DNA from: an uncultured Actinomycetes bacterium
GTDB lineage: Bacteria > Actinomycetota > UBA4738 > HRBIN12
Assembly: GCA_963758715.1 (NCBI GenBank)
Contig: CAVWWK010000004.1
Location: forward strand, 225,404-289,403
Direction: 5' to 3'
Length of the DNA: 64,000 bases
Numbering within the stretch: the stretch's first letter is position 1; each line of letters starts with the position of its first letter. Under the pieces are notes generated by a model that did not search any database, was not told the origin of the DNA, and saw nothing but the letters and a program-made list of their open reading frames with translations. Position numbers and translations under genes: made by a program. Shown here piece after piece: positions 37,384-64,000 of the stretch.

Positions 37384-38268
37384 TCAGTTCTTGCGCCTGC
37401 TCGCGCGCGTGCCCACGATGAGGTTGGTGCCCGCCGCCAGGAGCCCGGCCGAGAACAACACCGTGCCCCAGACGTTCACCTGGGGCGGCACGCCCAGCCG
37501 CGTCGCGCCGTAGACCCAGGTCGGGAAGGTGTTGGTCTGCCCCTGGACGAAGTTCGTGATGACGAAGTCGTCGAGCGACAGCACGAACGCCAGCAGGAAT
37601 CCCGCCACGATGCCGGGCAGGATCAGCGGGAAGGTCACACGGAAGAAGGCCTGGAGCGGGGTCGCGAACAGGTCCTGGGCGGCGTTCTCCAGGGAACGGT
37701 CGAGCCCCTGCACGCGCGCCCGGACCGTGATCGCGACGAACGCGATCGCGAAGCCGATGTGGGAGAACAGGATCGTGGGGTATCCGATGCCGATCGCGAC
37801 GCCGGCCGGCTGCGTGGAGTTCAGACGCACGAACATCGCGAGCAGGGCCGACCCCAGCACGATCTCGGGCACCGCGATCGCGAGGAAGATCACGAAGTTC
37901 ACGCCGCCGCGGCCGTGGAAACGGTACCTGCCGAGCACCAGGCCGATCAACGCGCCGAGCGCGGTCGCGATCAGCGCGGCGGGCACGGCCACGGCGATCG
38001 AGGTCTTCAGGGACTCGTTCAGCGGGGGGATCGCCGCGATGTTCTTCCACCAGTTGAGCGTGCAGCAGGTGAAGCGCGCGACCTGGCGCTCCCCCGCGAT
38101 GTCGTTGAATCCGTAGAGGATCATCACGAAGATCGGGCTCGCCAGGTAGACGATCATGGCGACGGTGAAGATGCCCATGATGTAGAGGCCGATGGGGCGG
38201 CGCTTCTTCCGCAGCGGCGGCCGTTCGATCTCGGTTGCGGGCGGACGGTCGACCGTGACGGCGCTCAT
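37384..38268 (-). CDS. potC: Spermidine/putrescine ABC transporter permease PotC.
   Basis: 294 aa, 6 TM, EAA-like loop. ATGA overlap with the potB stop. Confidence 0.85.
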   Translation of the reverse strand: MSAVTVDRPPATEIERPPLRKKRRPIGLYIMGIFTVAMIVYLASPIFVMILYGFNDIAGERQVARFTCCTLNWWKNIAAIPPLNESLKTSIAVAVPAALIATALGALIGLVLGRYRFHGRGGVNFVIFLAIAVPEIVLGSALLAMFVRLNSTQPAGVAIGIGYPTILFSHIGFAIAFVAITVRARVQGLDRSLENAAQDLFATPLQAFFRVTFPLILPGIVAGFLLAFVLSLDDFVITNFVQGQTNTFPTWVYGATRLGVPPQVNVWGTVLFSAGLLAAGTNLIVGTRASRRKN

Positions 38269-39237
38269 GTGGCGGCTCCCGCGGCGAGGGCATCGTCCTC
38301 GGTACCCAGCAGCTTCGCGTAGATCAGCGCCAGGATCAGCATGCCGATCATCAGGATCACCGAGAGCGCCGAGGCGATCGGGTAGTTGAACTGGGTCAGG
38401 AACTCCCGCTGGATCACCTGGCCGATCATGTAGGTCTGGGGAGACCCGAGCACCTGGGAGTTCACGTAGTCGCCCGTCGGCCGGCACGAACGTCAGGACC
38501 ACGGCCGCGAAGACGCCCGGGAACGAGAGCGGGAGCACCACCTTGCGGAACGCCTGGAACTTCGTCGCGTACAGGTCCTTGGCGGCCTCCACGAGGCGTC
38601 GGTCGATCCGCTCGAGCGCGACGTACAGGGGCAGCGCGGTGAACGGCAGGAAGTTGTACGTGATGCCGGCGATCACCGCGGTCGGCGTAGCCAGCACCTG
38701 GAAGTCCTCGGGCAGCAACCCGATGCTCTTCAACGGTGCGAACAACAGCCCGTCGTCGGCGAGGATGAACTTCCACTGCACGGTCCTGATGACGAACGAC
38801 ACGAAGAACGGGACCAGGATCAGGAAGAACAGGGTCGACTTCCAGCGCCCGCCGTAGAACGCGACCCAGTACATCATCGGGTAGGCCAGCAGGATGCAGA
38901 TCACGGTCGCGATCCCCGAGTACAGGAGCGACTTCGCGTAGAAGCCCTTGTACTGGGAGAACGCGTCCGTGTAGTTGCTGAACTCCCACGTGAAGGTGTA
39001 GCCGCCCGAGAGCAAGCCGCCGCTCTGCAACGACGTGAACACCACGATGAACATCGGAACGATGAACGCGATCAGTAGGTAGATCGTGCCCGGCGCGAGG
39101 AGGCCGTACGCGACGCGACGTTGCCGCTTCGCCAGGACCTGGTCGGCGCGCTCCGGCGGCTCGTCACCGCCCGCGGTGAGGACGTGCTCGGCGGCGAGCG
39201 CGTCGCCGAGCGACTCGTGCCCTCCCTCCACGGTCAT
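38265..39237 (-). CDS. potB: Spermidine/putrescine ABC transporter permease PotB (one frameshift at the CCC run 38473-38475).
   Basis: The two halves are contiguous if one base is removed (...TFVPADG / DYVNSQVLGSPQTYMIGQVIQ...). Confidence 0.8.
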
Positions 39238-39256
39238 GTGTTCAGCTTCCTCGAGG

Positions 39257-40546
39257 TCAGCTCTCGGACAGCGGGACGAAGATCGCGTCCCACTCGTCCC
39301 GCTCCTCTTCGGTGGTGAGGTTGCGCCCGAACGGTGTCTTCTCCAGCAGCGCCTCGTCCGGCCACAGGAACTTGTTGTTGGCCATGCCGTCGAGCGCCTT
39401 GGCGGTGGCGGGGTCCTTCTCCGTCTTCGCGTGGTCGGCGAGCAGGTCCTGCACGGCGGGCACGGGCGACATGTAGGCCACCCACTCGGTGATCAGCTGC
39501 GCGACCTCGGGCGTGTAGACGAAGTCCATCAGCTGGAGCGCGCCCTGCGGGTTGGCCGAGTTCGCGGGATCAGCATGTTGTCGATCCACAGGAGGGCGCC
39601 GCCCTCCGGCACGATGAACTCGAAGGGGTAGTTCTCCCAGAGCTTGTAGTACAGGACGTCGCCCGACCACGCCATCGAGGCCGACAGGTTCCCGGCGGTG
39701 AAGTCGTCGATGTAGCCCTGGTCGTAGAACTGGCGCACCGTGCCGGAGTCCTTCAGCATCTGGATCCAGGCGGCGGCCTCCTTCCACTCCTCGGGCCCCG
39801 AGTCCGCCGGCGTGATGCCGAGGTTGATCATCACGACGTCGGGCATGTCCTGGTTCAACATGCCGATCGCGTTCGTCCCCACGATGTCGGGGTTCATGAG
39901 GTCGTCCATCTTGGTGAGCGGGCCGCTGACCTTGTCGAGGTTGTAGCCCACGCCCGTGAGCCCCGACTGCCAGGCCATCGAGTACTTGTTGGCCTCATCG
40001 AACTCGGGGTCCTTGGCCCAGGTGGCGGCGTTCGCGTCGAAGTTGGGACGCATGGACGGATCGAGCTCGGTCGACCCACCCGTTGGTCGTGAGGTTCACG
40101 AACTCTCGCCCGTTCGTGATGACGATGATGTCCCAGCCCGTGTCCTGCCCGGCCTGGAGCTGCGGCAACAGCTTGCCGAAGAAGCTGTCGTTGCCGTTGA
40201 TCACGTCCTCGTAGTTGACCGCGATGCCCGTCTCTTCCTCGAACATCACCAGCGACGTGTGAACGCGATCGCCGTTCTCGTCCTTGGCCGTGTCGATGTA
40301 GAGCGGCCAGTTCGCGAAGTTGAGCGAGCTTCCCGGTTCGGCGCCGAAGTCGACCGCGGGTCCCGTGGCAGCGCCCGGAGGGGTGGTGGAGCCGCCGCAG
40401 GCGGCGAGGATGGATGCGAGGCTCAACGTGCCCACGGTCGCCCCGCCGTACTTGATCAGGTCCCGGCGGGAGACCCGGCGCTGCGTCATGCCCCGCATGA
40501 ACGCGCTCTCGGACCCTGGCATCCGGCTGGGGCGATCGTCTGTCAT
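39257..40546 (-). CDS. potD: Spermidine/putrescine-binding periplasmic protein PotD (two frameshifts, at about 39565 and about 40075).
   Basis: Three ORF fragments join into one PotD-like SBP. Both breaks are at G/C homopolymers. The N-terminus has a lipoprotein-like signal (LASILAACGG). Confidence 0.8.
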
Positions 40547-41685
40547 TCTTCTTCCTCCTCGAGGTTCAGGTCTTCCTGCGGCGTGACCGCGAAAGTGTTC
40601 TGCGGGCTCCACGACACCGTGACGGCATCTCCCTGGCGCGGTGCTTGGCCCTCACCGAGGTTCTGGACGTAGGCGGTGATCGTCGTGCCTCCCACGGACT
40701 CGATCTTGTACTGGTGGCTCACGCCGATGTACGTGCTCATCGTGACCGTGCCCTTGACGTGGTTCTCCTGCGAGGCGCCGTTCTCGCCGAGGGTGATCGT
40801 GAGCTTCTCGGGGCGCACGCCCACCTTGAGGCGCTCGCCGGCGTCGGCGGGGATGCGATCCGAGGGCACCTTCACGGTGCCCCCCGCGCTCAGCTGCACG
40901 GTCGCCACACCATCCGTCGTCTCGCGAACCTGGCCTTCCAGCATGTTGGAGGCGCCCAGGAACCCCGCGACGAACTCGGTCGCGGGGTTCTCGTAGACCT
41001 CCTCGGGGGCCCCGAGCTGCTCGATCTTGCCCAGGCGCATGACCGCGAACCGGTCGGACATCGTCATGGCCTCTTCCTGGTCGTGGGTCACGTAGATGAA
41101 CGTGATCCCCACCTCCTGCTGGATGCGCTTGAGCTCGAGCTGCATCTGCTTGCGCAGCTTGAGGTCCAGAGCGCCGAGGGGTTCGTCGAGCAGCAGGACC
41201 TTCGGCTGGTTGACCAGGGCGCGGGCGAGGGCCACGCGCTGCTGCTGGCCGCCCGACATCTGCGGTGGCTTGCGGTCTTCGAAGCCGGTCAGGTCGACGA
41301 GCCGCATCGCCTCCTTCGCGCGCGTCGCGATCTCGTCCTTGGGGACCTTCTTGCGTCGCAGGCCGAACGCCACGTTGTCCGCCACGTTCAGGTGTGGGAA
41401 CAGGGCGTAGGACTGGAAAACCGTGTTGACGTCTCGCTTGTACGGAGGCAGGTCCGTGACGTCTCGTCCGCCGAGGTAGACCGTGCCGTAGGTGGGATCC
41501 TCGAACCCGCCGATCATGCGGAGCGTCGTGGTCTTGCCGCACCCCGACGGGCCCAGCATCGAGAAGAACTCCCCCTCCTCGATGTCGAGCGACAGGTCGT
41601 CCACCGCGGCAACGCCACCGAACACCTTCGTGACGCGCTCGACGCGCACGTCGATCTCGTTCGGCACCTCCACCCCCTTTTCCAC
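40543..41685 (-). CDS. potA: Spermidine/putrescine ABC transporter ATPase PotA.
   Basis: 380 aa. GPSGCGKTT, LSGGQQQRVALARAL, a TOBE-like C-terminal domain. Confidence 0.92.
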   Translation of the reverse strand: MEKGVEVPNEIDVRVERVTKVFGGVAAVDDLSLDIEEGEFFSMLGPSGCGKTTTLRMIGGFEDPTYGTVYLGGRDVTDLPPYKRDVNTVFQSYALFPHLNVADNVAFGLRRKKVPKDEIATRAKEAMRLVDLTGFEDRKPPQMSGGQQQRVALARALVNQPKVLLLDEPLGALDLKLRKQMQLELKRIQQEVGITFIYVTHDQEEAMTMSDRFAVMRLGKIEQLGAPEEVYENPATEFVAGFLGASNMLEGQVRETTDGVATVQLSAGGTVKVPSDRIPADAGERLKVGVRPEKLTITLGENGASQENHVKGTVTMSTYIGVSHQYKIESVGGTTITAYVQNLGEGQAPRQGDAVTVSWSPQNTFAVTPQEDLNLEEEEE

Positions 41686-41810
41686 CCCGCCCGTGAGGGC
41701 CTTGCGGCGGGGCGATCATCACCCGTCGTAACCGCTCCCGCACCCGGCGGGATCGGACATGCATCATCGACCACTTGTACGGAACGGACAAGGGGCAGGA
41801 TGGAGCAACC

Positions 41811-42974
41811 TCAGGCGGGGTGCTCCGTGGACGGCGCCGCCGGCGCGTCGCCGTCCACGGGGCCCTGCTCGGGGGGGCCACCGTTGGGCCGGCGCCATCG
41901 GTCGAGCGCGGGCAACGCCGTGATCAGGAACAGGATCACCGCCCCCAGCAGGATCAGCCCCACGGTCGTCCGGCCATCGATGAGCCCCACCGCGAGCGCG
42001 CTCCCCGAGATCAGCACGCTCCACAGGTACATCAGCAGGACCGCTCGCGAGTGGCTGTGCCCGATCTCCATCAGGCGGTGATGGATGTGCTCCTTGTCTG
42101 CGTGGCCGATCCCCTGTCCGCGGAACGTCCGTCGCGCCACAGCGAGCGCCACGTCCAGGAACGGGATGAACAACACCAACAGGGGAACGACCAGGACGCC
42201 CGCGATCGCGGCGAGGTCGCCCCCGGAGGGCGGGAGCGGGTTCCGGCCGACACCCGAGATCGTGAACGTCGCCACCAGCATCCCCAGCAACATCGATCCC
42301 GAGTCACCCATGAAGATCTTGGCGGGATGGAAGTTCCACGGCAGGAAGCCGACGCAGATGCCCACGGTGATCGCCGACAGCAGCGCCGCGGCCGACGCGT
42401 CGCCGAACGAGCTCGGCGTGCGCACCACGTAGATGAAGAACGCCCCGGCGGCGATCGCCACCATGCCCGCCGCCAGCCCGTCGAGGCCGTCGACCAGGTT
42501 CACCGCGTTCGCGATCGCCAGCACCCACAGGATCGTGAGCAGGGCCGCGAGGTCGGGCGTGAGGTCGACCACGCCGAGCCCCGGGAGCCAGAAGTAGGCC
42601 AGCGAGGCGCCCATCAGCACCAGGACGCCGGCGATGAAGATCTGCGCGGTCCCCTTGGCCAGTGCGGACGTCCCGCGCCGATCATCGATGACGCCGAGGC
42701 CGACCATGAGCGTGCAGGTCACCAGTGCGGCGAGCGGTTCCGGGCTGCCTGCGCGCATCGCCGAGAAGAACGGCAGGACGAACGACAGTCCCAGGCCCGC
42801 GAGGAACCCCACGTACATCGCCAGGCCGCCCATCGTGGGCGTGGGCACGGGATGAACCTTCCGGTCGCCCGGACGATCGATCGCGCCGATCCGGATCACG
42901 AGCCGTCGCACGAGCGGCGTGGCCAGGAACGTCGTCCCCGCGCTCACGAGGAAGATCAACAGGTAGGCGCTCAC
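41811..42974 (-). CDS. wecA: UDP-GlcNAc:undecaprenyl-phosphate GlcNAc-1-phosphate transferase (WecA/Rfe, GT4/MraY-like).
   Basis: 387 aa polytopic. DRKVHPVPTPTMGG, VNLVDGLDGLAAG. Confidence 0.85.
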   Translation of the reverse strand: MSAYLLIFLVSAGTTFLATPLVRRLVIRIGAIDRPGDRKVHPVPTPTMGGLAMYVGFLAGLGLSFVLPFFSAMRAGSPEPLAALVTCTLMVGLGVIDDRRGTSALAKGTAQIFIAGVLVLMGASLAYFWLPGLGVVDLTPDLAALLTILWVLAIANAVNLVDGLDGLAAGMVAIAAGAFFIYVVRTPSSFGDASAAALLSAITVGICVGFLPWNFHPAKIFMGDSGSMLLGMLVATFTISGVGRNPLPPSGGDLAAIAGVLVVPLLVLFIPFLDVALAVARRTFRGQGIGHADKEHIHHRLMEIGHSHSRAVLLMYLWSVLISGSALAVGLIDGRTTVGLILLGAVILFLITALPALDRWRRPNGGPPEQGPVDGDAPAAPSTEHPA

Positions 42975-43040
42975 GCTGGCGCCAGTGTGGTGGCCCGGTC
43001 GCGGCGCGGCAACCAGGCCGGTGACGAGAGGCCGGTCACC

Positions 43041-44309
43041 CTACGGGTAGAGCGGGAACCGTTGCATCAGGTCGCGGACCCGCGCGCGAGCCTTCTCCTT
43101 GACGCCGGAGTCCTCGGGGCTCTTCATCACGTCGCCCATGATGCTCGCGATCTCACGCATCTCGGGCTCGTCCATGCCCAGCGTCGACGGGCCCGGCGTG
43201 CCGACCCTGATGCCCGAGGGCGTCGACGGCGGGTTGGGGTCGTAGGGGATCTGGTTCTTGTTGAGCGCGATGCCCACCTCGTCTGCGACGGCCTCCGCCG
43301 TTTTGCCGTCGATCCCCAACGGCCGAAGGTCCGCCAGGATCAGATGCGAGTCCGTGCCACCGGAGACGATGCGGAGCCCCTCATCCCCCAGGCCGGCCGC
43401 GAGGGCGCGCGCGTCGCGAACGGTGCGCTCGGCGTAGTCCCGGAACTCCTGGGTCGAGGCCTCCTTGAGCGCCACGGCCTTGGCGGCGATGCAGTGTTCG
43501 AGCGGACCGCCCTGCATCATGGGGAACACGGCCTTGTCGATGGCCTTGGCCTGTTCCTCCTTGCACAGGATCATCGCCCCGCGAGGCCCGCGCAGCGCCT
43601 TGTGCGTCGTGAAGGTGACGACGTCGGCATAGGGAACCGGCGAGCTGTACGCGCCGCCGGCCACCAGGCCGATGAAGTGCGAGGCATCCACCCACAGCAG
43701 GGCGCCCACCTCGTCGGCGATCTGGCGGAACGCCGCGAAGTCGATGTCACGCGGGTAGGCGGTGTAGCCGCTCAAGATGATCTTCGGCCGCTCCGCCTTC
43801 GCGAGGTCGCGGATCCGGTCCATGTCGAGCCGCTCGGTCTCCCGGTCCACCTCGTAGCCGATGAAGTTGAACCACTTGCCGCTGACGTTGACCGGGGAGC
43901 CGTGGGTGAGGTGCCCGCCGTGCGCCAGCACCATCCCCAGCACCTTGTCGTCGGAGCCGGGCGTCAGGAACGCCCCGAACACGGCCATGTTGGCCGAGGC
44001 GCCGGAATGGGGCTGTACGTTGGCGTGCTCGGCCCCGAAGAGGGCCTTCGCGCGATCGATCGCGAGCTGTTCTGTGACGTCGACGAACTCACAGCCACCG
44101 TAGTAGCGGCGGCCGGGGTAGCCCTCGGCGTACTTGTCGTTCATGGTGGAGCCGAGAGCGGCCAGGACCGCCGGGCTCGCGTAGTTCTCGGATGCGATCA
44201 AGCGAAGGTTCGTCCGTTCGCGCTCCAGCTCGTTCACCAGCGCCTCGGCGACCTCCGGATCGGTGGCCTTCAGGGCCTCCCAGTCCGCTGCGTACTCCCT
44301 GTTCGTCAT
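43041..44309 (-). CDS. glyA: Serine hydroxymethyltransferase.
   Basis: Start MTNREYAADW. THKALRGPRGAMIL (the PLP lysine). Confidence 0.93.
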   Translation of the reverse strand: MTNREYAADWEALKATDPEVAEALVNELERERTNLRLIASENYASPAVLAALGSTMNDKYAEGYPGRRYYGGCEFVDVTEQLAIDRAKALFGAEHANVQPHSGASANMAVFGAFLTPGSDDKVLGMVLAHGGHLTHGSPVNVSGKWFNFIGYEVDRETERLDMDRIRDLAKAERPKIILSGYTAYPRDIDFAAFRQIADEVGALLWVDASHFIGLVAGGAYSSPVPYADVVTFTTHKALRGPRGAMILCKEEQAKAIDKAVFPMMQGGPLEHCIAAKAVALKEASTQEFRDYAERTVRDARALAAGLGDEGLRIVSGGTDSHLILADLRPLGIDGKTAEAVADEVGIALNKNQIPYDPNPPSTPSGIRVGTPGPSTLGMDEPEMREIASIMGDVMKSPEDSGVKEKARARVRDLMQRFPLYP

Positions 44310-44759
44310 CTCGGTGACTCCCCTCGTTCGATCTGCGCGATCTGCTCCAATCTCGGGACATGCCGGCCACCCTGGAACTCGGTGGCCAGCCATACTCGGG
44401 CGACCTCGCGTGCGTACTCGGGCGCGACCACCCTGGCGCCCATGCTCAACACGTTGGCATCGTTGTGTTCGCGCGAAAGTTGCGCCAGGTACAGGTCATG
44501 GCAGAGCGCGGCGCGGATCCCGCGCACCTTGTTGGCCGCGATCTGCTCCCCCTGACCCGAACCCCCGAGCACGATCCCGCGGTCCGCCTCGCCGCCTGCC
44601 ACCTTCTCGCGCCGCCGCCGCGCAGAACAGCGGATAGTCCACGGGTTCGGTCGAATCGGTGCCGCAGTCGAGGACCGCGTGACCATGGCCGGTGAGGAAC
44701 TCCTTGAGGTCCTCCTTCAGCGGGTAGCCCGCGTGATCGCTGCCCATCGCGATGCGCAC
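44306..44759 (-). CDS. rpiB: Ribose-5-phosphate isomerase B (one frameshift at about 44615).
   Basis: MRIAMGSDHAGY...LFCAAAA / ...GIVLGGSGQGEQIAANKVRGIRAAL sit in two frames. Confidence 0.8.
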
Positions 44760-44762
44760 GGC

Positions 44763-45357
44763 TCAGGCTCCCTCGCTCGCGGCCGGCAGGTCGACGGTTC
44801 CGTACAGTCCGTCCACGAGGCGGGCGATCCACCGATCGAGCTCCCACGCGATCGCGCGGTAGGCATCCAGCGGCATGCCGAGGGGATCCGCGACGTCGTC
44901 GTCGTGCGGGTTCCCGGTGAATCCCGAGCGCCTGAGCTCGTCGGCCTGGGCGATCCGTGCCTGGAGGTCGTCCGGCCGCGCGTCGCCGTCGGCCTCCCCA
45001 AGCCCCTCGAGCAGCCGCGTGAGCTCCTTCAGGCTGAAGGTCTTGGCCCGGAGCCCAGGGTCGGAGCGCACGAGGTCATCGACGTGCTCCATCGCCATGC
45101 ACACCACCAGGTCCGCCTCCCGAGGCATGGAGGGCGCCACGACGCGCGCTCGGTGGCGAGCGATGTCACTGCCGAGCTCGGCCGCGGCCATGGATCGACT
45201 CGGGACGGGCGCCCGAACCCTCGAGGCCGGCCGTTCCGGCCGAGGACACCGCGGGCGCGCGGTCCGCGAACCGCGCCAGGAGCGCATCACGCAGCAGCCC
45301 CTCGGCCATCGGGGAGCGGCAGATGTTGCCCGTGCACATGACGAGGATGGCGGTCAT
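44763..45357 (-). CDS. Low-molecular-weight protein-tyrosine phosphatase (one frameshift at about 45190).
   Basis: N-terminal P-loop VMCTGNICRSPMAE (CX5R); the C-terminal part lies in another frame. Confidence 0.75.
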
Positions 45358-45985
45358 GACGAGGGCCGCGAGTCTAGCAGCGGCCCTTCTTCGAGCGACC
45401 CCTCGATGCGTTCGAGCGGGACCTGTCCCCGGCGGAGCAGCCGGGCCGGGCCGTGAGCCAGGTCCACGACGGTGGAGGCATCGCCGACGAGAGGGGCCTC
45501 GTCACACAGGTAGACCGCGACCAGGTCGCCGAACGTCTCCTCGAGCTCGTCGCAGGTCTCCAAGGGCGCGCTCCCAGACCGGTTGGCGCTGGTGACCGCC
45601 AACGGGCCCGAGCGCGCGAGCACGGCCGCGGCCAGGCGATGGCGCGGCACCCGGACACCGACCGTGGTGGGGTCCCCGCCGAGATCCCAATCGCGACTCG
45701 AGGGCCCGCGTTCCAGCACCAGGGTGAGGGCCCCGGGCCAGCAGGAGGCCGCGAGCCGCGCGGCGCGTTCATCCACGACGCGCGATCCGCTCGGCTTCCT
45801 GCAGGGACCCGACGAGCACGGGAAGGGCGCGGTCGTCGGTCCCGCACCTTCGCGTCGAACAGCCGGGCGGTCGCGCCCTCGACGCCGGGCGCGGTGCCGA
45901 TGCCGTAGACGGTGTCGGTCGGCATGACGATCAGCTCGCCTCGCCGTGCCGCGGCTGCGGCGTCGGCGATCGGGTCGGACTTCAC
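45354..45985 (-). CDS. tsaC: L-threonylcarbamoyladenylate synthase TsaC/YrdC-domain protein (two frameshifts).
   Basis: GTG start overlaps the prmC stop (GTGA). PTDTVYGIG...AKGR / TDDRALPVLVGS / ...LTLVLERG...AVTSANRSG sit in three frames. Confidence 0.75.
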
Positions 45986-46815
45986 GCGAGCCTCGCGACG
46001 ATCACCCTGTCGCGGCCGTTGAGGTCGGCCACCGTGATCGGAGCGTCGAATCCGGCGGCGACGGCCAGGTCCGCCACCGCGCCCGCCATCGTCTCGGCGA
46101 TCTCGACGGCGACGATCCCCCCTCGGCGGAGCACGGTGGCGGCGTCCTCGAACAACGCCGCGTAGACCTCGAGCCCACCCACGAGCGCCGAGACGGGATC
46201 GGCCCGCACCTCGGCGGGCAGCCCGTCGAACGCATCCCGCTCCACGTAGGGAGGGTTGCTGACGACCGCGTCGACATGACCTGCGAGCGACGCCGGGACG
46301 GGGTCGAGCCCGTCCCCCAGGAGGATCTCGATCGTCGAGGCGAGCCGGGCGGCGTTCTCGCGAGCGAGCGCCACGGCGGCCGGATCGAGGTCCGTGGCGA
46401 GCACACGCGCATCCCGCCGCTCGTCGGCCACGGCGAGCGCGATCGCGCCGGTGCCGGTCCCCACGTCGACGACGATCGGCGACGGCACCGGCTCGAGGGC
46501 GCGCAACACCTCCTCGACGAGCACCTCCGTCTCGGGCCGGGGGATGAACACACCCGGCCGCACGGCCACGACGATGTGGCGGAAGGCCTGGGTTCCCGTG
46601 ATGTGCTGGGTGGGGGTGCCCGTGCATCGACGGCACAAGGCCCGGCCGAAGGCCTTGGCCTCGGCGGCGCTCAGCCCATGCTCCCGGGAGTAGATGCCGG
46701 TCCGGTCCGTCTCGAGGACCCCGGCGAGCAGGAGCTCCGCGGTCGTGCGCGGGCTTTCCACGTCGTGACGCGCGAGGTAGTCGGTGGCCCTGCGAACCAC
46801 CGCCGCGGGTCTCAT
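45982..46815 (-). CDS. prmC: Release-factor glutamine methyltransferase PrmC/HemK.
   Basis: 277 aa. [20 protein letters not shown] overlap with the prfA stop. Confidence 0.88.
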
Positions 46816-47907
46816 CGCTCCTGGGCGTCGCCCGCCAGCTGTTCGGATCGCTCGGCGGCGTTGAGCCGGTCGACGAACCCGTCGAGCTCCTGTCCCCCCG
46901 CCAGGACGTCCTGAAGCTGGTGCGACGTGTACTTGATGCGGTGGTCGGTGACGCGGCCGTCGGGGAAGTTGTAGGTCCGGATCTTCTCCGCGCGGTCGCC
47001 GGTCCCGAGCTGGGAACGGCGTGCCGCGGCCTCCTTGGCCTGGGCCTCGTCCTGGGCCTTCTGCAGGAGCCGCGCGCGCAGGTAGCGCAGGGCCTTCTCC
47101 TTGTTCTGGAGCTGGGAGCGCTCCTCCTGGCATTCGACCTTGATGCCGGTCGGCAGGTGCACGACGCGCACCGCCGAATCGGTCGTGTTGACCGACTGCC
47201 CGCCGGGGCCGCTGGATCGGTACACCTCGATCCTCAGATCCTCCGGACGGAGCTCGACCTCGACGTCTTCGGCCTCGGGGAGCACGGCGATGGTCGCGGT
47301 GGAGGTGTGGATGCGGCCCGACGACTCGGTGACGGGCACGCGCTGCACACGGTGCACCCCGGACTCGTGCTTGAGCTTGGCGTGCGCCGTCTTGCCTCGG
47401 ACCTCGAGCGAGACCTCCTTGAACCCACCGATGTCGCTCGGCGAGGACGCGAGCACATCGGTCTTCAGGCGGTGGCGCTCGGCGAAGCGTCGGTACATCT
47501 CGAAGAGCTCGCCCGCCCAGAGCGCGGCCTCCTGCCCGCCCGCGCCCGCGCGGATCTCGACGATCAGATCCTTTCCGTCGTTGGGGTCCTTCGGAACCAA
47601 CAGGTGTTCGAGCGTGGCGCGAAGCTCGTCCGCCCGCTGCTCCGCGCGTTCCGCCTCCTCTTCGAAGAATGCCTGCATCTCCGGATCGGCTTCGGACAGC
47701 GCCAGGTCTCGCGGCGTCTCGCGACTGACCGGATGCGGCCACGTACTCGCGAAAAGGGTGGACGATCTCCTCCAGCTCGGCGAGCGCGATCCCCAGCTCA
47801 CGCATGCGATCGGGGTCGGCCGAGACCTCCGGCGTGGCCATCTCGGCCGCCACCTGCTCGTACCGGGCCTCCACGTCCCGCAGCCGATGTTCCAGATCGG
47901 TCGCCAT
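46812..47907 (-). CDS. prfA: Peptide chain release factor 1 (one frameshift at about 47735).
   Basis: N-terminus [19 protein letters not shown] in one frame. PVT/GGQ core ([24 protein letters not shown]) in another. Confidence 0.88.
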
Positions 47908-54988: not shown

Positions 54989-55046
54989 CGGTGGATTCCC
55001 TCCTCGGGGCGATGCCGCGTGTCGGTTCGGTGTCGCGAGGTGGTCG

Positions 55047-55838
55047 CTACTCGCCGACGGGCACGGTGCGTTGCTGGATGGGCGCCTCGTGCTCGCGATG
55101 GAGCTGATCGCCCGCGAGCGAGAAGTGGGTCATCACGTGGCTGTCGCCGAACGGGAACCGGCGGTGGATGCTGGACCTGGTCGCCGTCGAACTCCAGCAC
55201 GTTGTAGCACGGCTTGGTGTACCCGCGGACCCGCAAGGACGACACCGTGCCGGCGTTGGCGACGTACATGTTCTCCAGCCGCCAGACGTACGGCACGTGC
55301 TTGTGGCCCGGAAAGCACGACCTGCACGCCGGCGTTGATGAGCACCTCGAGCAGGTCGCCGGCATCCATCACCGTGCTGCGCTCGCGCCCGGTGCCGGGG
55401 ATCGGCAGCAGGTGGTGGTGCAGCACGAACACCTTCAGCGCCGCGGGCTCCTCGAACTGGCGGCGGATCCAGTCGTAGTGGACGCGGCCGACCTTGCCCT
55501 CGTTGAGGTCGGGCTCGCTGGAGTCGACCCCCACGATGCGAACGCCGTCGACGTCGTGAGACCACATGCGAGGGCCGATCAGATCCTCGAAGTGCAGGTA
55601 GCCGACGTTGCGGGAGTCGTGGTTGCCCGGAACGGTGATGATCGGGCGCCTGGATGCGCTCGGCGTAGGCGACCCAGTTCTTGTACTCCTGCCGGTAGCC
55701 CTCGGCGGTGAGGTCCCCGCTGCAGACGACGACGTCGGGCTGCATCTCGTTGATCTCGGCGATCACCCGGTTCATGAGGTTGGGCACGAAGAACGGCGAG
55801 CCGACGTGGGGATCGGAGATGTGGGCGAGGGTGACCAC
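55047..55838 (-). CDS. Calcineurin-like metallophosphoesterase, about three frameshifts.
   Basis: VTLAHISDPHVG...VVCSGDLT...GNHD.../...VFVLHHHLLP...GHKHVPYVW... Confidence 0.6.
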   Translation of the reverse strand: MVTLAHISDPHVGSPFFVPNLMNRVIAEINEMQPDVVVCSGDLTAEGYRQEYKNWVAYAERIQAPDHHRSGQPRLPQRRLPALRGSDRPSHVVSRRRRRSHRGGRLQRARPQRGQGRPRPLRLDPPPVRGARGAEGVRAAPPPAADPRHRARAQHGDGCRRPARGAHQRRRAGRAFRATSTCRTSGGWRTCTSPTPARCRPCGSAGTPSRATTCWSSTATRSSIHRRFPFGDSHVMTHFSLAGDQLHREHEAPIQQRTVPVGE

Positions 55839-55954
55839 GGGTGGCTCCAGTCTAGTGCGGACGCGCGACGCTCGCGTGGCGGCCGGGCGCAGGAGTCCTC
55901 GCCGGTCAATCCGATGGTCTGGCCTCCCACGCGGACCCCTCGATGCCTGGGACG

Positions 55955-57146
55955 ATGACGTCTCGTGAGTGGCTCGACGTGATGCTCGTGGTGCTGCTCG
56001 CCGCCGCCCTCTCTCGGGGTACCGGCGCGGCGCCGTCCTCCAGGTGTTCGGATCGGCGGCCTGCTGGTCGGCGTGGCGGCCGGGCATGGCCATCGCACCG
56101 AGCGTCGCCGGCTTCGCCGAGTCCCCCGCGAGCGGCGGCCTTCGTGCTCGGCCGCGGTGCTGGTCGCGGCGGCCATCGGGAACATGCTCGGGTATGGCCG
56201 GATCGTGGCTGCGTCCGCGTGACGCGCAAGACCCCCCTGCGCCGCGCCGACGCGCTGGGCGGCTCCGCCCTGTCCGCGGCGTTCCTGCTGCTCGCCGACT
56301 GGTTCCTGGCGCTGAACCTGGCGAGGGCCCCTTCCCCGGGTGGCGCGAGGGGTCCGCGAATCGCGATCGTGCAGACGCTGGACGCCACGCTCCCACCGCC
56401 GCCCTCGCTCCTGGCGAGGCTGGGGCGGGTGCTGACGCTGCTCGGGTTCGCCGACGTGTTCATCGGACTCCCGGCGTAGCCCGCCGATCCGGTCGATCCG
56501 CCCACGGGCGCCGAAGCGGTCGCCGCCGCGCAGGCGGCCGAGGGGTCAGCACGGTCGAGGTGGCCGCGGAGGGATGCTTCCAGGGGTTCATGAATCAAGG
56601 GAGCGGGTTCGTCGTCGCCGCACGGCCTCGTGGTCACGAACGCCCATGTCGTGGCCGGCACCGAACGGCAATGGGTCCACGTCCGAAGGCGACACGGCGG
56701 GGCCACGGTGGTCGTCTTCGACCCGGACCTCGACATCGCCCTGCTGCACGTGCCCGACCTCGATCTCGCGCCGCTCCCGCTGCTCGCGGGCGAGGCGAGG
56801 CGAGGCGGTGCCGGGGCGCGTCCTCGGGTATCCCGAGCGGCGGACCCCTCACGCGCAAGCCGCCGCGGCGATCAGGGCGGTGATCGAGCCGGTCGGCCGC
56901 AACATCTACGGCGAGGGTCAGGTGCAGCGCCGGCGTACCTACGAGATGCAGGCGGCATCCACCGGGGCAACAGCGGCGGCCCGTTCGTGCTCCCGAGCGG
57001 CAGGGTCGCCGGCGTGGTGTTCGCGAACTCGGTGGTCGCCGACGGCGTGGGCTACGCGATCGTCTCCACGACAGGTGGTGCCGAAGCGTCGCGGAGGGTC
57101 GGCGACGAGGAACCGGCGCGGCGTGACCGGATCGTGCACGGGCTGA
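55955..57146 (+). CDS. MarP-like membrane serine protease (CvpA-like N-terminal TM domain plus trypsin-like S1 domain), several frameshifts.
   Basis: MTSREWLDVMLVVLLAAALSRG...; VVTNAHVVAG, DIALLHV, GNSGGP; ends ...GVTGSCTG, resembling the MarP C-terminus. Confidence 0.55.
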
Positions 57147-57149
57147 GGA

Positions 57150-58055
57150 GCCGTCAGCTCCTCGACCAGATCGAAGCCGGTCGAGCGGACCCCGGGCCGC
57201 AGGACGCGCCATCCATCCCCGGGATCCGGCAGGCGGAACCGCGACGCCTCTCGAACGCGAGCAGGGTCGGACCCGCAGCCCGAGACGCACACGGGGACAC
57301 GCGTGGACCGGAGCGCGTCGAAGAGCTCCTTCACGGCCGGCACGAGCGCCAGGCGGACGTCCTGATGCAGCCGGTCCTGCAGCGCATCGGCGATACAGGC
57401 CGGGATCGTCGCGTCAGCGGCCTCGCACCATCAGCGCTGCGTGCGCCGCGTTGAAGACGGCGTCCGGCCCTCGGGACCAGACGGCGGGCAGGACCGCGCG
57501 CGCCTCGGCGGTGGGGAGCCGGACGCCCGTCGGCACGAGCAGCGACCGGCCGAAGATCCGGATGCGGGTCGAGACGATGGACGGCTCCTTCCGGCGGCGC
57601 GATCGTGAACCCTCCGAAGCGCGCCGGCGCCGCGTTGTCGGGATGCCCCTCGATCTCGCCGGCCAGCCGCGACCGGGTGAAGGTCGTGCCCGATCGGCGG
57701 GTCGAGCCCGTCGATCGACCCGCGGAGCAGGCGCGAGCGCCAGCGACCACCCCGGCCACCGCCGCGGCCGAGGACGAGCCGAGGCCCCGCTCGAGCGGGA
57801 TCGCGGTTCACGCCGTGGATCCGCAGCGGGGGCGACGCCAGGCCGTGGCCGACCCGACCCTGGACGATCGTCTCGCTGACCAGGTCCGAGCCGTCGGTCG
57901 GAAGCTCGTCCGCGCCTTCGCCTTCCCAGGTGACTCCGGGCTCGGCGTCGGTGTCGATCGTGACCTCGTTGCACAGGTCGAGCGCGAGCCCGAAGCAGTC
58001 GAAGCCCGGCCCGAGGTTGGCCGAGGTCGCGGGGACGCGGACGGTCGACGCGCAT
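57150..58055 (-). CDS. thrB: Homoserine kinase, heavily frameshifted. The 3' end is approximate.
   Basis: ATG right after the thrC stop. ...VRVPATSANLGPGFDCFGLALDL..., ...EIEGHPDNAAPARFGGFTIA, ...PDAVFNAAHAALMV, ...VCVSGCG. Confidence 0.55.
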
Positions 58056-58076
58056 CGTGCGCGCGAGCCTACCCGG

Positions 58077-59105
58077 TTAGAGGCCGAGCTCGCCCGCGAC
58101 CGCCGCCGGCGTCGGGCGGCACCGCCGGTCGGATGCGCCGGCGCCGGCGATCGCCCACTCCGGGTCCTTCAGCCCGTGCCCGGTGAGGACGCAGACGACC
58201 GTGGCGCCCCGGCGGGAGCGACGCCCTCGGCGTGCAGGTGCAGCAGCCCGGCCACGCTCGCGGCGCTGGCCGGCTCGGCGAACAGGCCCTCGTGGGCGAC
58301 CCGGCGGTAGGCGGCCAGGATCTCCCGGTCGGTGACGGCCGCGATCGCCCCCTCGGACTCCCGGGCCGCGGCGACCGCCTTGTCCCACGACGCCGGGTTC
58401 CCGATGCGGATCGCGGTCGCGATCGTCTGCGGGTCCGTCACGGGCTCGCCGCGCACGATGCGGCGCGGCACCCTGCGCCTGGAATCCCATCAGCTGCGGG
58501 GGCTCGGCGATGATCGCCGTCGGCGAGGTACTCGGAGTAGCCGATCCAGTGGCTGGAGATGTTGCCGGCGTTGCCGACGGGGACGCAGTGGATGTCGGGC
58601 GCCCGGCCGAGCGCGTCGACGATCTCGAACGCGCCGTCTTCTGGCCCTGCAGCCGGTAGGGGTTCACGCAGTTCACGAGCGTGACCGGGTACCGATCCGC
58701 CAGGTCCCTGGCCAGCTCCAGCGACTCGTCGAAGTTGCCCTCCACCTCGAGGACCCGCGCGCCGTGCACGAGCGTCTGGGCCATCTTCCCCATCGCGACC
58801 TTGCCCTTGGGCACGAGCACCGCGCACGTGAGCCCCGCCTTGGCGGCGTAGGCCGCCGCGCTGGCGCTCGTGTTGCCCGTCGAGGCGCACACGACGGCCT
58901 TCGCGCCTTCCTCGAGCGCCTTGGAGATCGCCAGCGTCATGCCACGGTCCTTGAACGAGCCGGTCGGGTTCGCCCCGTCGTACTTGAGCCACACGTCGCA
59001 GCCGGTCTCCTCGGACAGCGGCCTCGGATCGAACGAGCGGCGTGCCGCCTTCGCCCAGCGTGACGACCGGCGTGGACGCCGTCACCGGCAGACGTTCGCG
59101 GTACT
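58077..59105 (-). CDS. thrC: Threonine synthase (about five frameshifts).
   Basis: [44 protein letters not shown] (the PLP lysine), [45 protein letters not shown]. Confidence 0.8.
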
Positions 59106-59158
59106 CCTCGATCACGACCGCGCCACTGGTGCGCCGCGGGGCATCGGACCGTCGGCGC

Positions 59159-60463
59159 TCACGACTCCTCGCCCTCGACCCGGAGCACGCTCGCGACCGA
59201 GCGCACGGCGTCGGACTCGCGGAGCTCCTGCAGGGTCTTCTGCAGGGCGCCCTCCTGGGCCCGGTGGGTGATGAACACGAGCGTCGCCTCGTCGCCGAAT
59301 CCCTCCTGCCAGACGCGTTCGATCGAGACGCCGTTGTGGCCGAAGTCGCCCGGCGATCTCGGCGAGCACCCCCGGGCGGTCGGCGACGTGGAGGTTGAGG
59401 TAGTACTGCCCCTGGCGTGTCGTCCATCGGACGGATGCGTCGATCGAGCGCGCACGTGCAGCCCATCGCCCGCCCGCCGTTCACGCAGGTTGCGGGCGGC
59501 CGAGACCAGGTCGCCGACGACCGCCGAGTCGCGGTCGCGTCGCCCCCGGCGCCGGGCCCGTAGAACATCAGCTGGCCCACCTTGCTCGCCCTCGACGAAC
59601 ACCGCGTTGAACGCGTCGCGCACCGAGGCGAGCGGATGCGCGAGCCGGGATCATCGCGGGGTGGACGCGGGCGCAGATCTCCTCGTCCTCGAGCTCGGCG
59701 ATCGCGAGCAGCTTCACGACGTAGCCCATGCGCGTCGGCGTCGGCGATGTCCTGCGCGGTGACGTTCGCGATGCCCTCGCGGTAGACGTCGCCGGCCACG
59801 ACCCGGGAGTTGAAGGCGATCGACGCGAGGATCGCGCACTTGGCGGCGGCGTCGTAGCCCTCGACGTCGGCGGTGGGATCGGCCTCGGCGTAGCCGAGCG
59901 TCTGCGCCTCGGCGAGCGCCTCGTCGAACGACCACCCGTGCTCGGACATCTGGGTGAGGATGAAGTTCGTGGTGCCGTTCACGATGCCGAACATCCGCGT
60001 GACGCGCTCGCCGGCGAGCGACTCCTTCAGGGGCCGGATCAGCGGGACCCCTCCGGCGACCGAGGCCTCGAACAACAGGTCGCGATCGGCGGCGTCGGCG
60101 GCGTCGAACACGTCCTTGCCCGGCGTTCGCGAGCAGCTCCTTGTTCGCGGTCACGACCGGCTTGCCGTTCGCGAACGAGCGCAGCAGGAGCGAGCGCGCG
60201 CGGGCTCGACCCCGCCGATCAGCTCGCAGATCACGTCGACGTCCGGGATCATCGACGATCGAGACCCCGTCGGTCGTGAAGGCCTCGCGCGGGACGGGCA
60301 CGTCGCGGTCGCGGTCGAGATCGCGGACGGCGACGCGCGTGACCTCGACGCGGCAGCCCGCGCGCAGCGCGATGTCGTCGGCGTGCTCGTGCAGCATGCG
60401 GATCACCGCGCTTCCGACGGTGCCGCATCCCAGCATGCCCACCGTGATCGTGCGTTCGCTCAT
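59159..60463 (-). CDS. hom: Homoserine dehydrogenase with a C-terminal ACT domain (several frameshifts).
   Basis: MSERTITVGMLGCGTVGSAV, ...FGIVNGTTNFILTQM..., ACT tail ...ITHRAQEGALQKTLQELRESDAVRSVASVLRVEG. Confidence 0.8.
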
Positions 60464-61010
60464 GTTCCCGTTCCCCCACGATCCTCGGCCCCGGGCCCGA
60501 TCCAGGCCGCCATCAGTATCTCGTCCTCGTCACCGTAGGACTTGCGCGAGTGCCGCGACAGCCGACCCTCCTGCTGGAACCCGAACCTGCGGTAGAGCGC
60601 GATCGCCCCCGTGTTGTGCGGGTAGACCGACAGCACGATCTTGTCGACGCCCACCGCCCGGGCCCATCCGATCGCCTCGGCGAGCAGGGCCGAGCCCGAT
60701 CCCACGGCCCCGTCGATCGGCGGCGACCGCGATCCCGAGCGTCGCGACGTGCCTGGTGACCGGATGGTGCTCGCGCTGGGCGTACACGTGGCCGACCACC
60801 CTTCCCGTGTCCTCGACCGCCACGATCTGGACCTGATGATCGGTCCAGGGACGCCGGAATCGCGGACCGATAGGCCCGTGCGCGGATGGCGGACCCGCTC
60901 GGTGCGCACGTACCGGCCCTCGGCGACGACGCGGTCCAGAACTCGAGATAGGAGGTCACGTCGCGCGGGCTCGCGGGGCGGATCGTGATGCCGTCGGGGA
61001 GGCGGCGGCG
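60460..61010 (-). CDS. GNAT-family N-acetyltransferase (frameshifted; the 5' end is approximate).
   Basis: ...VVGHVYAQRE...LGIAVAADRRGRGIGSALLAEAIGWARAVGVDKIVLSVYPHNTGAIALYRRFGF. ATGA overlap with the hom start. Confidence 0.55.
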
Positions 61011-62270
61011 TGACCCGCGGGGGGACGTGCGCCTCCAGGTTCTCGAGGTCGCCCTCGTCCTCGCGCCGCAGCCAGAGGGTCGCGACCGCGTCCCGCACGC
61101 CGATCGACAGCGGGCCGCCCGACGCTGTTGTAGGTGCTGGCGAGCGAGTACGTGTAGGCGCCGGTCGCGGCGAACGCGAGCAGGTCGCCCGGCCCGACGT
61201 CGCCGGCAGCAGCACGTCCTCGGCGAGGGTGTCGCCGGACTCGCAATGCCGGCCGACGATCGGTGAACGTCGACGAGGCTCGCCCGACGCCGCGACCGCC
61301 GAGACCGTGTAGCGAGCGTCGTAGAGCATCGGGCGGGGGTTGTCGGACATGCCGCCGTCGACCGCGAGGAGCATGCGGCCGCCGCGCCACCTGCTTGCGC
61401 GAGCCCACGCGGTACAGGGTGACGCCGGCGTTCGCGACCAGTGACCGCCCGGGCTCGACGACGAGCTGCGGCACCGGGAGCCCGTGGTCGGCGCACAGCG
61501 TCTCGAGCCGGTCGCGCGAGCACGTCCGCGAGCCGCGCCGATCCGCAAGCGCTGTCTCGTCGGTGTAGGTGACGCCGAACCCTCCGCCGACGTCGAGCAC
61601 GGTCGCGACCGAGCCGATCTCGTCCCGGATGCCGCGAGCAGCGTCACCAGGCGCTCGAGCGAACGCAGGTAGGGTTCGTCGTCCAGGAGCTGCGAGCCGA
61701 TGTGCGCATGCACGCCCTCGAAGCGCACGCCCGGCATACCCGATCGCCTCCCGCACCACGGCCGGGGCGTCCGCCAACGACGTGCCGAACTTGGACGCGT
61801 CGTGCCCGGTCGCGATCGCCTCGTGCGTCTGGACCTCGACCTCGGGCACGACCCGGAGCAGGATCGGCTGGACCCGGTGCTTCGCGCGCGCCATGCGAAT
61901 CGAGCCGTTCGAGCTCCGCGCCGTTGTCGACGATCACCAGCGAGAGGCCCGAGTCGACCGCGAGCTCGAGCTCGTCGTCGGACTTGTTGTTGCCGTGCAG
62001 CACGATGCGGGAGGCCGGGGCGCCGGCACGCAGGCACGCCTCGACCTCGCCGCCGGTGGACGCGAGCAGGTCGAGCCCCTCGTCGAGCGCGAGCCGCACG
62101 ACGGCATGCGCGGTGAACGCCTTGACCGCGTAGCAACACGCGGGGGAACCGCGCGCGCACGTCGCGGGCACGCGCTCGGATCTCGTCCTCGTCGAACACG
62201 ACGAGCGGCGTCCCGAAACGGGCGGCGAGCGCGGTCGCGGCCAGGCCCCCGAGCTCGAGGCCCGTCGGGA
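60990..62270 (-). CDS. lysA: Diaminopimelate decarboxylase (several frameshifts; both ends approximate).
   Basis: VFDEDEIRARARDV, YAVKAFTAHAVVRLALDEGLDLLASTGGE, RIVLHGNNKS, HAHIGSQL, ...EPGRSLVANAG... Confidence 0.75.
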
Positions 62271-62336
62271 CCGGTGCGGGCCGACCGCGGCCACGGAGGA
62301 GACGACGATGCGTCCGGAGAGGCCCCGGCCGCCCGC

Positions 62337-64000
62337 TCAGTCATCGGTGCGTTCCATCGACTCGGGGGCCGACACGCCCACGATGCCGAGGAGGTTCGCG
62401 ATGACCTGCTTCGTGGCGGCCGACGAGCCAGAGCCGGGCCGCGATCAGGTTCTCGTCGTCGGCGGCCAGGACCGGGCACGACGTGTAGAAGCGGTGGAAC
62501 CGCGCCGGCGAGGTCCTGCAGGCGCGTGGGTCAGGCGATGGGGAGCACGCAGGTCGGCCGCCATCGCGATCTGCGCCGGGAGCATCGGCGAGCCCACGCA
62601 GCAGCTGGAGCTCGGCCTCGTGCGTCAGCACGGTGAGATCGACGTCCTCGACGGGCGCGAGCTCGACGCCCTGGTCGGCGGCCTTGCGGAGCAGCGACGC
62701 GATCCGTGCGTGCCCGTACTGCACGTAGTAGACCGGGTTGTCCATCGAGCGTTGCTTCACCGCCTCGATGTCGAAGTTCAGCGCGGCGTCGTTGCCGTAG
62801 AGCAACAGGTGGAACCGGGTCGCGTCGGCGCCCGACCTCGTCGAGCAGCTCGTCCAGCGTGATGAAGTTTCCCGAGCGCTTGCCCATGGCGACCGGCTCG
62901 CCGTCGCGCAGGAACGAGACCCACTGGTAGATCAGCATCTCCACGGCGCCGGGGTCATAGCCGAGCGCCTGCGCCGCGCCCTTGACCCGCGCCACGTCGC
63001 CATGGTGGTCGGCGCCCCACACGTACACGAGGTGGTCGAACCCGCGGGAGAACTTGTCGATGACGTAGGCGCAGTCGGCCGCGAAGTACGTGTGCCGTCC
63101 GTTGGATCTGATCACAACCCGGTCCTTGTCGTCGCCGTATTCGGTCGACCGGAACCACACCGCGCCCTCGGCGTCGTAGACCTTGCCGGCGTCGCGCAGG
63201 CGCTCGACCGCCGCGTCGATCTCGCCCTTGCGCGCCAGCTCGGCCTCGCTGAAGAACACGTCGAACCGCACGCCGAACCGTTCCAGCGTGGCTTCGATCC
63301 AACCGAGGACGCGGCGAACGGCTTCCTCGCGGATCCGCACGAGCCGATCGGGGTCGGGCAGATCGGCCAGCCCGGCGCCCTCGTCGCTCAGGATGTCCTC
63401 GGCGAGCCCGGCGATGTAGTCACCGTGATAGCCGTCGTCGGGGACCTGGGCCTCGCGACCGACCAGCTGCAGGTACCGCGCTTCGACCGAGGCGACCGAA
63501 CCGGTCCATCTGCCCGCCCGCGTCGTTGAAGTAGTACTCGCGCTCGACCGTGTGACCCGGAGGCCTCGAACAGGCGGGCAACGGCATCGCCGATCGCGGC
63601 GTTGCGCGCGTGGCCGAGGGTGAGCGGACCGGTCGGGTTCGCGCTCACGAATTCCACCTGGACCTTCTCGCCGGTCGGCGCCGCGCGGCCGTACGCCGTC
63701 GCCGTCGGCCACGATCCGCCGCAGCGTGTCGTGCAGCCACGTGTCGGTGGTGAACACGTTCAGGAATCCGGGGCCGGCGACCTCGACCTTCTCGACGAAG
63801 GGAACCCGGGGAAGCGCGTCGGCGATGGCCTGGGCGACGTCGCGCGGGGGGGCGCCCGCCCGCTTGGCGAGCGCGAGCGCGACGTTCGTCGCGAAGTCCC
63901 CGTGGTCCTTCTGCTTGGGTGCCAAGAGCTCCGGCGTGGGCAGGTCTCCGTCGATCCCGAGGCCCGGCGCCGCCGTCGCGAGGCCCTCGCCGAACCAGGA
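62337..64000 (-). CDS. argS: Arginine--tRNA ligase. The N-terminus is beyond the window end, and there are frameshifts.
   Basis: ...[20 protein letters not shown]..., ...[15 protein letters not shown]..., [18 protein letters not shown]-terminal ...[13 protein letters not shown]. Confidence 0.85.

Follow-up and report, generated by a model that had tools for sequence, protein, structure and literature searches.

The window analyzed here, a stretch of 64,000 nucleotides from an uncultured Actinomycetota genome, carries many reading frames that are interrupted by single-base insertions and deletions, and the question raised is whether these indels are genuine or are errors in the deposited sequence. 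The original prediction, made from the sequence alone, had favored an artefact over pseudogenisation. Frame-changing indels were located by frameshift-aware protein-to-DNA alignment against intact orthologues from ~160 related contigs. Plain tblastn was rejected for placing frameshifts, as its HSPs were continued in the wrong frame at ~50% identity, and our own protein-to-DNA aligner with frameshift states was used in its place. The nearest reference had ~74% DNA identity and 89 to 90% protein identity to the window; no reference of the same species was present in the genome and metagenome collections.

A total of ~104 frame-changing indels was detected in the window. Maximum-likelihood change points at 38.4 and 52.4 kb separated a low-error zone (positions 1 to 38400) with 2 events (0.05 per kb), an intermediate zone (38400 to 52400) for which the event list and alignments gave ~16 events (1.1 per kb) and a high-error zone (52400 to 64000) with ~86 events (7.4 per kb, or ~0.8% of bases), which reaches the end of the window. 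The change point at 52.4 kb and the three rates therefore bear out the predicted sharp rise after about 52 kb, and the error rate differs ~150-fold within one contig. A reference-free count of segments of coding frame without a terminal stop gave 0 to 2 in each 4-kb interval as far as 48 kb and 12 to 14 in each interval between 52 and 64 kb, so that the proposed dependence on position, with breaks far commoner towards the 3′ end, was seen even without a reference. Both change points disregard gene boundaries and strand, and they fall inside operons. No repeats or duplications marking these two change points were found, and G+C content did not explain them. Searches of the window for tRNA genes and Rfam RNA genes, which might have offered an independent check, found none.

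The first 37 kb had been described as almost clean, which held true: serA is split at ~694, and the atpC start near 30322 is disrupted, reading GTG-A-CTC with TGA in frame. No events were detected in 15 genes between 7.2 and 21.2 kb by alignment to the genes of locus L163 or between 29.9 and 38.4 kb by alignment to L161 and L162; the regions from 1 to 7 kb and 21 to 30 kb were examined by the reference-free method only. Beyond this part, all the genes listed as broken were indeed hit (rho with less certainty), but the claim that nearly every gene from potC onwards is affected was too broad, as potC, potA, the GT4 gene, glyA, prmC and rpmE were free of events.

Affected genes from potB to rho all lie on the reverse strand. 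The permease gene potB (38268 to 39237) has one inserted base at ~38478-38480, a break that results in a potB-potC fusion in a 617-aa ORF (37384-39237). In potD (39260 to 40546), encoding a polyamine-binding protein, there is an inserted base at ~40072 and a deleted base at ~39569. One inserted base each was detected in rpiB (44318 to 44759; base at ~44606), the low-molecular-weight phosphatase gene (44769 to 45357; ~45190) and prfA (46818 to 47907; ~47712), and two each were detected in tsaC of the Sua5/YciO/YrdC family (45360 to 45997; ~45777 and ~45835) and the DUF1385 gene (49004 to 49917; ~49355 and ~49477). The DivIVA-domain gene (48001 to 48941) has one event at ~48217-48253. The C-terminal 1.1 kb of rho (50276 to 51986) is clean, and about two less certain events (~51602 and ~51676) were placed in its low-complexity N-terminal domain.

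The dense zone starts in fsa (51976 to 52660, transaldolase/FSA family), which has two to three inserted bases (52453, 52589 and ~52641). From here on, all affected genes but one are again on the reverse strand. Six to seven inserted bases were found in the 2-phosphoglycerate kinase gene (52660 to 53640), ~15 events amounting to 17 bases in cpgS (53653 to 54990), the gene for cyclic 2,3-diphosphoglycerate synthetase, and three inserted bases (55170, 55309 and 55646) in the metallophosphoesterase gene (55050 to 55840). The exception in strand is the marP-like gene (55949 to 57143, forward strand), encoding CvpA and trypsin-like protease parts, with ~16 events. Four to six events are present in thrB (57158 to 58045), ~10 in thrC (58080 to 59140), ~5 in the GNAT acetyltransferase gene (60499 to 61010; one reference only) and ~8 in lysA (61033 to 62270). 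The 10 events in hom (59165 to 60463) comprise 12 inserted bases and no deleted base; correspondingly, 12 bases were unique to the window and none were missing in the DNA alignment. Eight inserted bases were detected in argS (62343 to 64000), which runs off the window. The one to five frame changes per gene given in the original prediction were, hence, far too few for the marP-like gene, cpgS, thrC, hom, lysA and argS.

In five related loci (L001, L003, L161, L162 and L163), the same genes occur in the same order and each is a single ORF; the comparison with related genomes that had been put forward as a check thus found uninterrupted orthologues where the genes of the window carry indels. Both hom and thrC were frameshift-free in 52 of 55 other genomes, compared to 20 frameshifts in the window. 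The only other loci of the panel with frameshifts in either gene (L045, L056 and L069) belong to three MAGs from a Nanopore-only workflow (PMC12313526). Programmed frameshifting or transcriptional slippage does not fit up to 16 shifts per gene with none in the orthologues. Correction of the indels raised the identity of the proteins to their relatives from ~50% to 80 to 89%, level with that of the clean genes (50% to 80% for thrC and 54% to 86% for cpgS, with hom at 84.5% after correction), and Pfam, NCBIfam and PDB matches became full-length. No extra amino-acid substitutions were detected on the window-specific branch of the most damaged genes, the length of this branch being 0.055 to 0.084 for cpgS, the phosphoesterase gene and hom versus 0.09 to 0.15 for rho, the DUF1385 gene and prfA. 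Apart from one or two doubtful cases in thrB and the marP-like gene, the corrected genes contained no in-frame stops.

Insertions make up most of the errors, which show no dependence on sequence context. Insertions outnumbered deletions by 84 to 20 (P = 2e-10), with an uneven spectrum along the zone in that the two were about equal in number in the marP-like gene. Among the single-base insertions placed by DNA alignment (n = 61), 35 were isolated, 24 were in runs of 2 and 2 were in runs of at least 3, the last number being below that expected for random insertion (P = 0.004 to 0.0002). The deletions examined were also outside homopolymer runs. All four bases were represented among the inserted ones, of which, as a rough estimate only, ~60 to 70% were G or C. 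The prediction that the breakpoints sit in G/C homopolymers was, therefore, contradicted by these data. With respect to its three named sites, the potD deletion at ~39569 does abut a CCC/GGG run, but the insertions in potB and at ~40072 in potD lie outside the runs that had been named. An artefact of the homopolymer type, in which G/C runs are miscounted as with 454, Ion Torrent, older Nanopore or CCS consensus data, could draw on this potD site and on the fact that homopolymer indels are the commonest consensus error of long reads (PMC12007338, PMC9262707). As the indels are not concentrated in mononucleotide runs, this explanation was considered highly improbable. In the DNA alignment, CG was apparently in excess directly before inserted bases, with gap placement being arbitrary within variable third codon positions.

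Avoidance of homopolymers, inserted bases that differ from their neighbors and a regional distribution are also features that would fit a mixture of strains, in which the consensus kept both SNP alleles of co-assembled strains and so gained one-base insertions. In line with this model, 34 of 46 insertions were compatible with a site adjoining the third codon position. The remaining 12, however, were uniquely placed between codon positions 1 and 2, a proportion in keeping with random placement, for which chance predicts one third, and not with synonymous polymorphisms (P = 8e-11 against 2% mislocalisation), and the 20 deletions are left unexplained. Retention of both alleles was rejected as the main cause on the basis of this codon-position test, and strain mixing was judged very unlikely.

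The same spectrum bears on the possibility that the indels are genuine and mark a recent block of pseudogenes produced by reductive evolution or by decay of a duplicate. The frameshifted ORFs look like pseudogenes, and the deposited record itself carries the indels. Against this, argS, prfA, thrC, hom, lysA and rho are indispensable genes and are hit together. Natural decay yields many more substitutions than indels, whereas ~100 indels are present here without an excess of substitutions or nonsense codons. Natural indels in bacteria are biased towards deletion, contrary to the excess of insertions observed, and natural slippage prefers the homopolymers that are avoided in the window. The steps in density inside operons also count against decay. 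An intact second copy at 90% identity or more was not found in the public collection. Neither the raised substitution load and nonsense codons of relaxed selection nor the deletion bias and slippage at repeats of a natural indel spectrum was found, and a pseudogene block is, hence, extremely unlikely. In mass pseudogenisation of the Mycobacterium leprae type, numerous substitutions are mixed with deletions and nonsense mutations, and the damage is genome-wide but leaves essential genes untouched. The window is similar in that an actinobacterial genome has many consecutive frameshifted ORFs of the housekeeping type but differs in showing almost only single-base indels without extra substitutions, in having essential genes hit and in the restriction of the damage to one stretch. 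There is a similarly slight chance that the extra bases are real and were produced by a very recent, regional and insertion-biased process, such as error-prone repair synthesis spanning tens of kilobases or a dead duplicated segment, which would have scattered +1 insertions through the block before substitutions accrued.

It is, in contrast, highly probable that the indel zone is a sequencing or assembly artefact in an unevenly accurate deposited contig and that the genes themselves are intact, as the original prediction had proposed. Genes interrupted in the window are uninterrupted in close relatives, removal of the indels yields full-length and normally conserved proteins without extra substitutions and with near-zero stops, and the excess of insertions is accompanied by a placement that is blind to codon position, gene boundaries and essentiality. 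The artefact is an indirect conclusion from these arguments, which are evolutionary and statistical ones. The window belongs to a 375.6-kb contig that was deposited for an uncultured, ~70% G+C Actinomycetota genome. The consensus accuracy of this contig is uneven along its length, with wrong bases amounting to essentially zero up to 38.4 kb, ~0.1% between 38.4 and 52.4 kb and ~0.8% from 52.4 to at least 64 kb. The errors consist of ~80% single-base insertions and ~20% deletions with few or no substitutions. They shift the frame every ~100 bases, and gene callers then produce truncated, fused or garbled proteins from intact genes. Most probably, this part of a long-read assembly had low coverage or went unpolished: the single-molecule long reads behind its consensus would have been too sparse or too noisy, or polishing would have missed the stretch. 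The feature is not biology, and no biological novelty attaches to it.

Random insertions are the most frequent error in raw continuous long reads, for instance in the default profile of read simulators. The window shares with these reads context-free insertions that exceed deletions and a small number of substitutions but differs in its error level of ~0.8% as opposed to 10 to 15%, indicating that some consensus was made. For long-read assemblies, indel-driven gene fragmentation is known to depend on coverage (PMC9262707, PMC12007338). As in Nanopore and PacBio assemblies and MAGs, where the error level is set by coverage and polishing, single-base consensus indels in the window break conserved ORFs and inflate pseudogene counts. 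The usual consensus signature of Nanopore and PacBio CCS data consists of homopolymer indels, often deletions (PMC12007338, PMC9262707), whereas insertions prevail in the window by ~4 to 1 and homopolymers are avoided. For continuous long reads, published insertion-to-deletion ratios are inconsistent, with deletions exceeding insertions in one data set (PMC5964698). A further difference from the Nanopore and PacBio case is the confinement of the errors to part of an otherwise accurate contig.

Two ORFs generated by frameshifts, one at 59714-60463 encoding a truncated Hom of 249 aa and the other at 52389-53414, matched the public protein collection residue for residue. Broken ORFs and intact proteins of the clean part all came from a single 375,604-bp NCBI/ENA contig, and the errors therefore sit in the deposit. 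No intact Hom of more than 89% identity was found among 5.8 billion clusters. Alteration of the window after download, with errors due to handling and absent from the public record, had nothing in its favor except the odd pattern and was refuted by the exact public copies of the two ORFs, leaving it with practically no probability.

The value of these observations is as a quality warning, since public collections already contain the contig and the proteins predicted from it. Distortion is to be expected in pseudogene counts, completeness estimates, protein clustering and structure prediction, and pathway calls for threonine, lysine and arginyl-tRNA are at risk. The range of error density within one contig means that genome-wide quality scores hide such zones. 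The context-free signature bears both on guesses as to the platform and on the polishing strategy: homopolymer-aware correction would miss errors that are not linked to homopolymers, and repair requires read-based polishing or protein-guided frameshift repair. Misleading public proteins include not only the truncated Hom and the PotB-PotC fusion but also a product that is open and garbled, and in high-G+C DNA a sequence can be wrong even where the ORF is open. This last product is encoded by the cpgS ORF at 53626-54900 (424 aa), in which sets of three closely spaced insertions bring the frame back.

Frame-changing indels were counted against intact orthologues from related contigs. Plain tblastn carried one frame across the shifts, at ~50% identity, and a protein-to-DNA aligner with frameshift states was therefore written. 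Each gene was aligned with its best five orthologues from 163 loci, and an event was counted if found with at least three references. A total of 104 frame-changing indels were detected, and a Poisson fit with two change points put the rate shifts at 38.4 and 52.4 kb; the three successive zones have 0.05, 1.1 and 7.4 events per kb (log-likelihood of −654 versus −772 for a single rate). A reference-free check, based on a codon-usage path through all six frames with the long ORFs of the window as training set, gave coding segments of ~1 kb up to ~44 kb and of 50 to 400 nt past 52 kb. Per 4 kb, 0 to 2 segments lacked a terminal stop codon before 48 kb, against 4 at 48 to 52 kb and 12 to 14 at 52 to 64 kb. 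The clean zone was verified with references at 7.2 to 21.2 kb, where no event was found in 15 genes, and at 29.9 to 38.4 kb, the remainder being covered by the reference-free method only.

The window has a G+C content of ~70% and nearly all genes are on the minus strand. The genes are arranged as in an uncultured Actinomycetota lineage; five related loci (L161, L162, L163, L001 and L003) have the same order, with each gene a single ORF. The nearest relatives have only ~74% DNA identity, with protein identities of up to 89 to 90%, and none is near-identical. The 5′ block runs from serA (one frame change at ~694, isolated in the clean part) to gatCAB and from ligA to the atp operon, potCBDA, a GT4 gene, glyA and rpiB (1 to 2 events). 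The predicted in-frame stop of atpC does exist, as a TGA at ~30322 where the start context is lost (GTG A CTC), but this single event is most simply read as one extra base directly 3′ of the start codon. One event, an insertion in GGCCG at ~38478 to 38480, was located in potB, and two in potD, an insertion in TCGACC at ~40072 and a deletion at ~39569. The middle block contains genes for a low-molecular-weight phosphatase (1 event), tsaC (2), prmC, prfA (1 to 2), a DivIVA-domain gene (1), a DUF1385 gene (2), rpmE and rho (~2). On alignment, potC, potA, the GT4 gene, glyA, prmC, rpmE and the other atp genes were event-free. The end block consists of fsa (2 to 3 events), 2PGK (2-phosphoglycerate kinase; 6 to 7), cpgS (cyclic 2,3-diphosphoglycerate synthetase; ~15), a phosphoesterase gene (3), a marP-like gene (~16), thrB (4 to 6), thrC (10), hom (10), a GNAT gene (~5), lysA (8) and argS (8). 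The original prediction of a high indel density was, hence, correct in substance, but its per-gene counts were wrong, as for cpgS, thrC and hom.

The two rho events are less certain because alignments are unreliable at 51400 to 51990 (minus strand), a low-complexity domain where the N-terminal part has a long Arg-, Gly- and Asp-rich insertion and which the codon-usage model assigns to the opposite strand. A 46-base stretch in the acidic low-complexity tail of the DivIVA-domain gene (48193 to 48238, minus strand) was present in none of the five relatives compared at this gene and is probably natural length variation plus one nearby frameshift. The lysA and GNAT genes lie between argS and hom (60425 to 62337), as in L003; in L001, the closest genome, hom directly follows argS (8596 to 8633) and both genes are missing from that position.

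Insertions outnumbered deletions by 84 to 20 (p = 2e-10), with 76 single-base and 8 two-base insertions and 17 single-base and 3 two-base deletions. DNA alignments gave window-only versus missing bases of 12 to 0 in hom, 8 to 0 in argS and 14 to 1 in cpgS, the exception being the marP-like gene, with similar numbers of insertions and deletions. Inserted bases included all four. The breakpoints had been predicted to sit in G/C homopolymers, but among 61 single-base insertions 35 were isolated bases, 24 belonged to a run of two and just 2 to a run of at least three, a share below the 15 to 20% expected in such longer runs for random insertions (p = 0.004 to 0.0002). The inspected deletions were likewise outside homopolymer runs. 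Of the three sites named in the prediction, the potD deletion at ~39569 abuts CCC/GGG; the potB insertion was not in CCC at 38473 to 38475 nor the potD insertion in CCCACCC at 40075 to 40081.

Natural gene decay would be accompanied by abundant substitutions, premature stop codons, a bias towards deletions and repeat slippage, and none of these marks was observed. At the level of protein sequence, corrected proteins match relatives as closely as clean genes do, with identities of 85.7% for cpgS, 89% for the phosphoesterase, 86% for thrC, 84.5% for hom and 86 to 88% for fsa, and of 78 to 84% for potA, 87 to 91% for glyA and 80% for rho among clean or lightly affected genes. In a three-taxon comparison, the window branch was not longer in the most damaged genes (0.055 to 0.084); in rho, DUF1385 and prfA it was 0.09 to 0.15. 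Corrected frames contained no stop codons, bar one or two doubtful ones in the marP-like gene and thrB. Repaired proteins matched domain models end to end (TAL_FSA, 1 to 283 of 285; PALP, 1 to 295 of 295), thrC and thrB were equivalogs above cut-off, argS had three ArgRS domains and lysA its LysA domains, and residues 3 to 436 of cpgS aligned to a solved cyclic 2,3-diphosphoglycerate synthetase, PDB 8ORU (E = 9e-92). The sole optimal repair site was between codon positions 1 and 2 for 12 of 46 insertions, in keeping with the one third expected by chance; the insertions ignore the code. This result rejects retained alleles of synonymous polymorphisms as the main source of the insertions. As thrC, hom and argS are each scattered over all three frames, their products would be non-functional if the sequence were real. 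Frameshift-free hom and thrC were present in 52 of 55 other genomes, and the three exceptions (L045, L056 and L069) had 1 to 2 events each. These exceptions, representative genomes with MFD isolate names, are Nanopore-only MAGs (methods, PMC12313526); their single frameshifts are at ~9584 in L045, ~9782 in L056 and ~9310 and ~10673 in L069, three of the four being one-base insertions. Normal corrected identity, the absence of a longer branch, near-zero stops and the insertion bias bear out the prediction of an artefact rather than pseudogenisation: the indel zone is an artefact in a deposited database entry rather than a feature of the organism.

Exact matches in public collections were found for RpmE, AtpE, GlyA, AtpA, AtpH, AtpG, PrmC and LigA, all from one 375,604-bp NCBI/ENA contig. 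Two frameshift-made ORFs, 59714 to 60463 (249 aa) and 52389 to 53414 (341 aa), are recorded from this same contig, indicating that the errors reside in the deposited assembly. Hom is shortened to 249 aa by the frameshifts, and no intact Hom of >89% identity is on record in the public protein collection. The potB insertion shifts the 5′ portion of that gene into the potC frame, generating a 617-aa fusion ORF (37384 to 39237, minus strand) that gene calling might present as a permease fusion. The cpgS ORF (53626 to 54900, minus strand; 424 aa) is unbroken despite its indels and partly out of frame, with 54% single-frame identity to L001 and, after repair, 86% to L088. Insertions lying close together in threes return the ORF to its proper frame, and with 70% G+C few stops occur in the wrong frames; openness of an ORF in this region does not show that the sequence is correct.

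The error signature differs from the usual homopolymer type. Single-molecule continuous reads show random-insertion noise, to which the signature is similar, though published ratios vary and no platform is assigned. A long contig, mostly accurate in the window, with an ~0.8% context-free indel zone points to a long-read assembly, in which the consensus of the error zone may derive from few or noisy reads or have been missed by polishing. Indel loads that vary with coverage, and gene fragmentation as their result, have been described (PMC9262707, PMC12007338).

2PGK followed by cpgS (52660 to 54990, minus strand) also occurs in L001, L003, L081, L088 and L098. No model for cyclic 2,3-diphosphoglycerate synthetase was found in Pfam or NCBIfam. 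Hyperthermophilic methanogens are the best-known source of the solute that this gene pair makes, and in this Actinomycetota lineage the pair is kept between fsa and the phosphoesterase gene.
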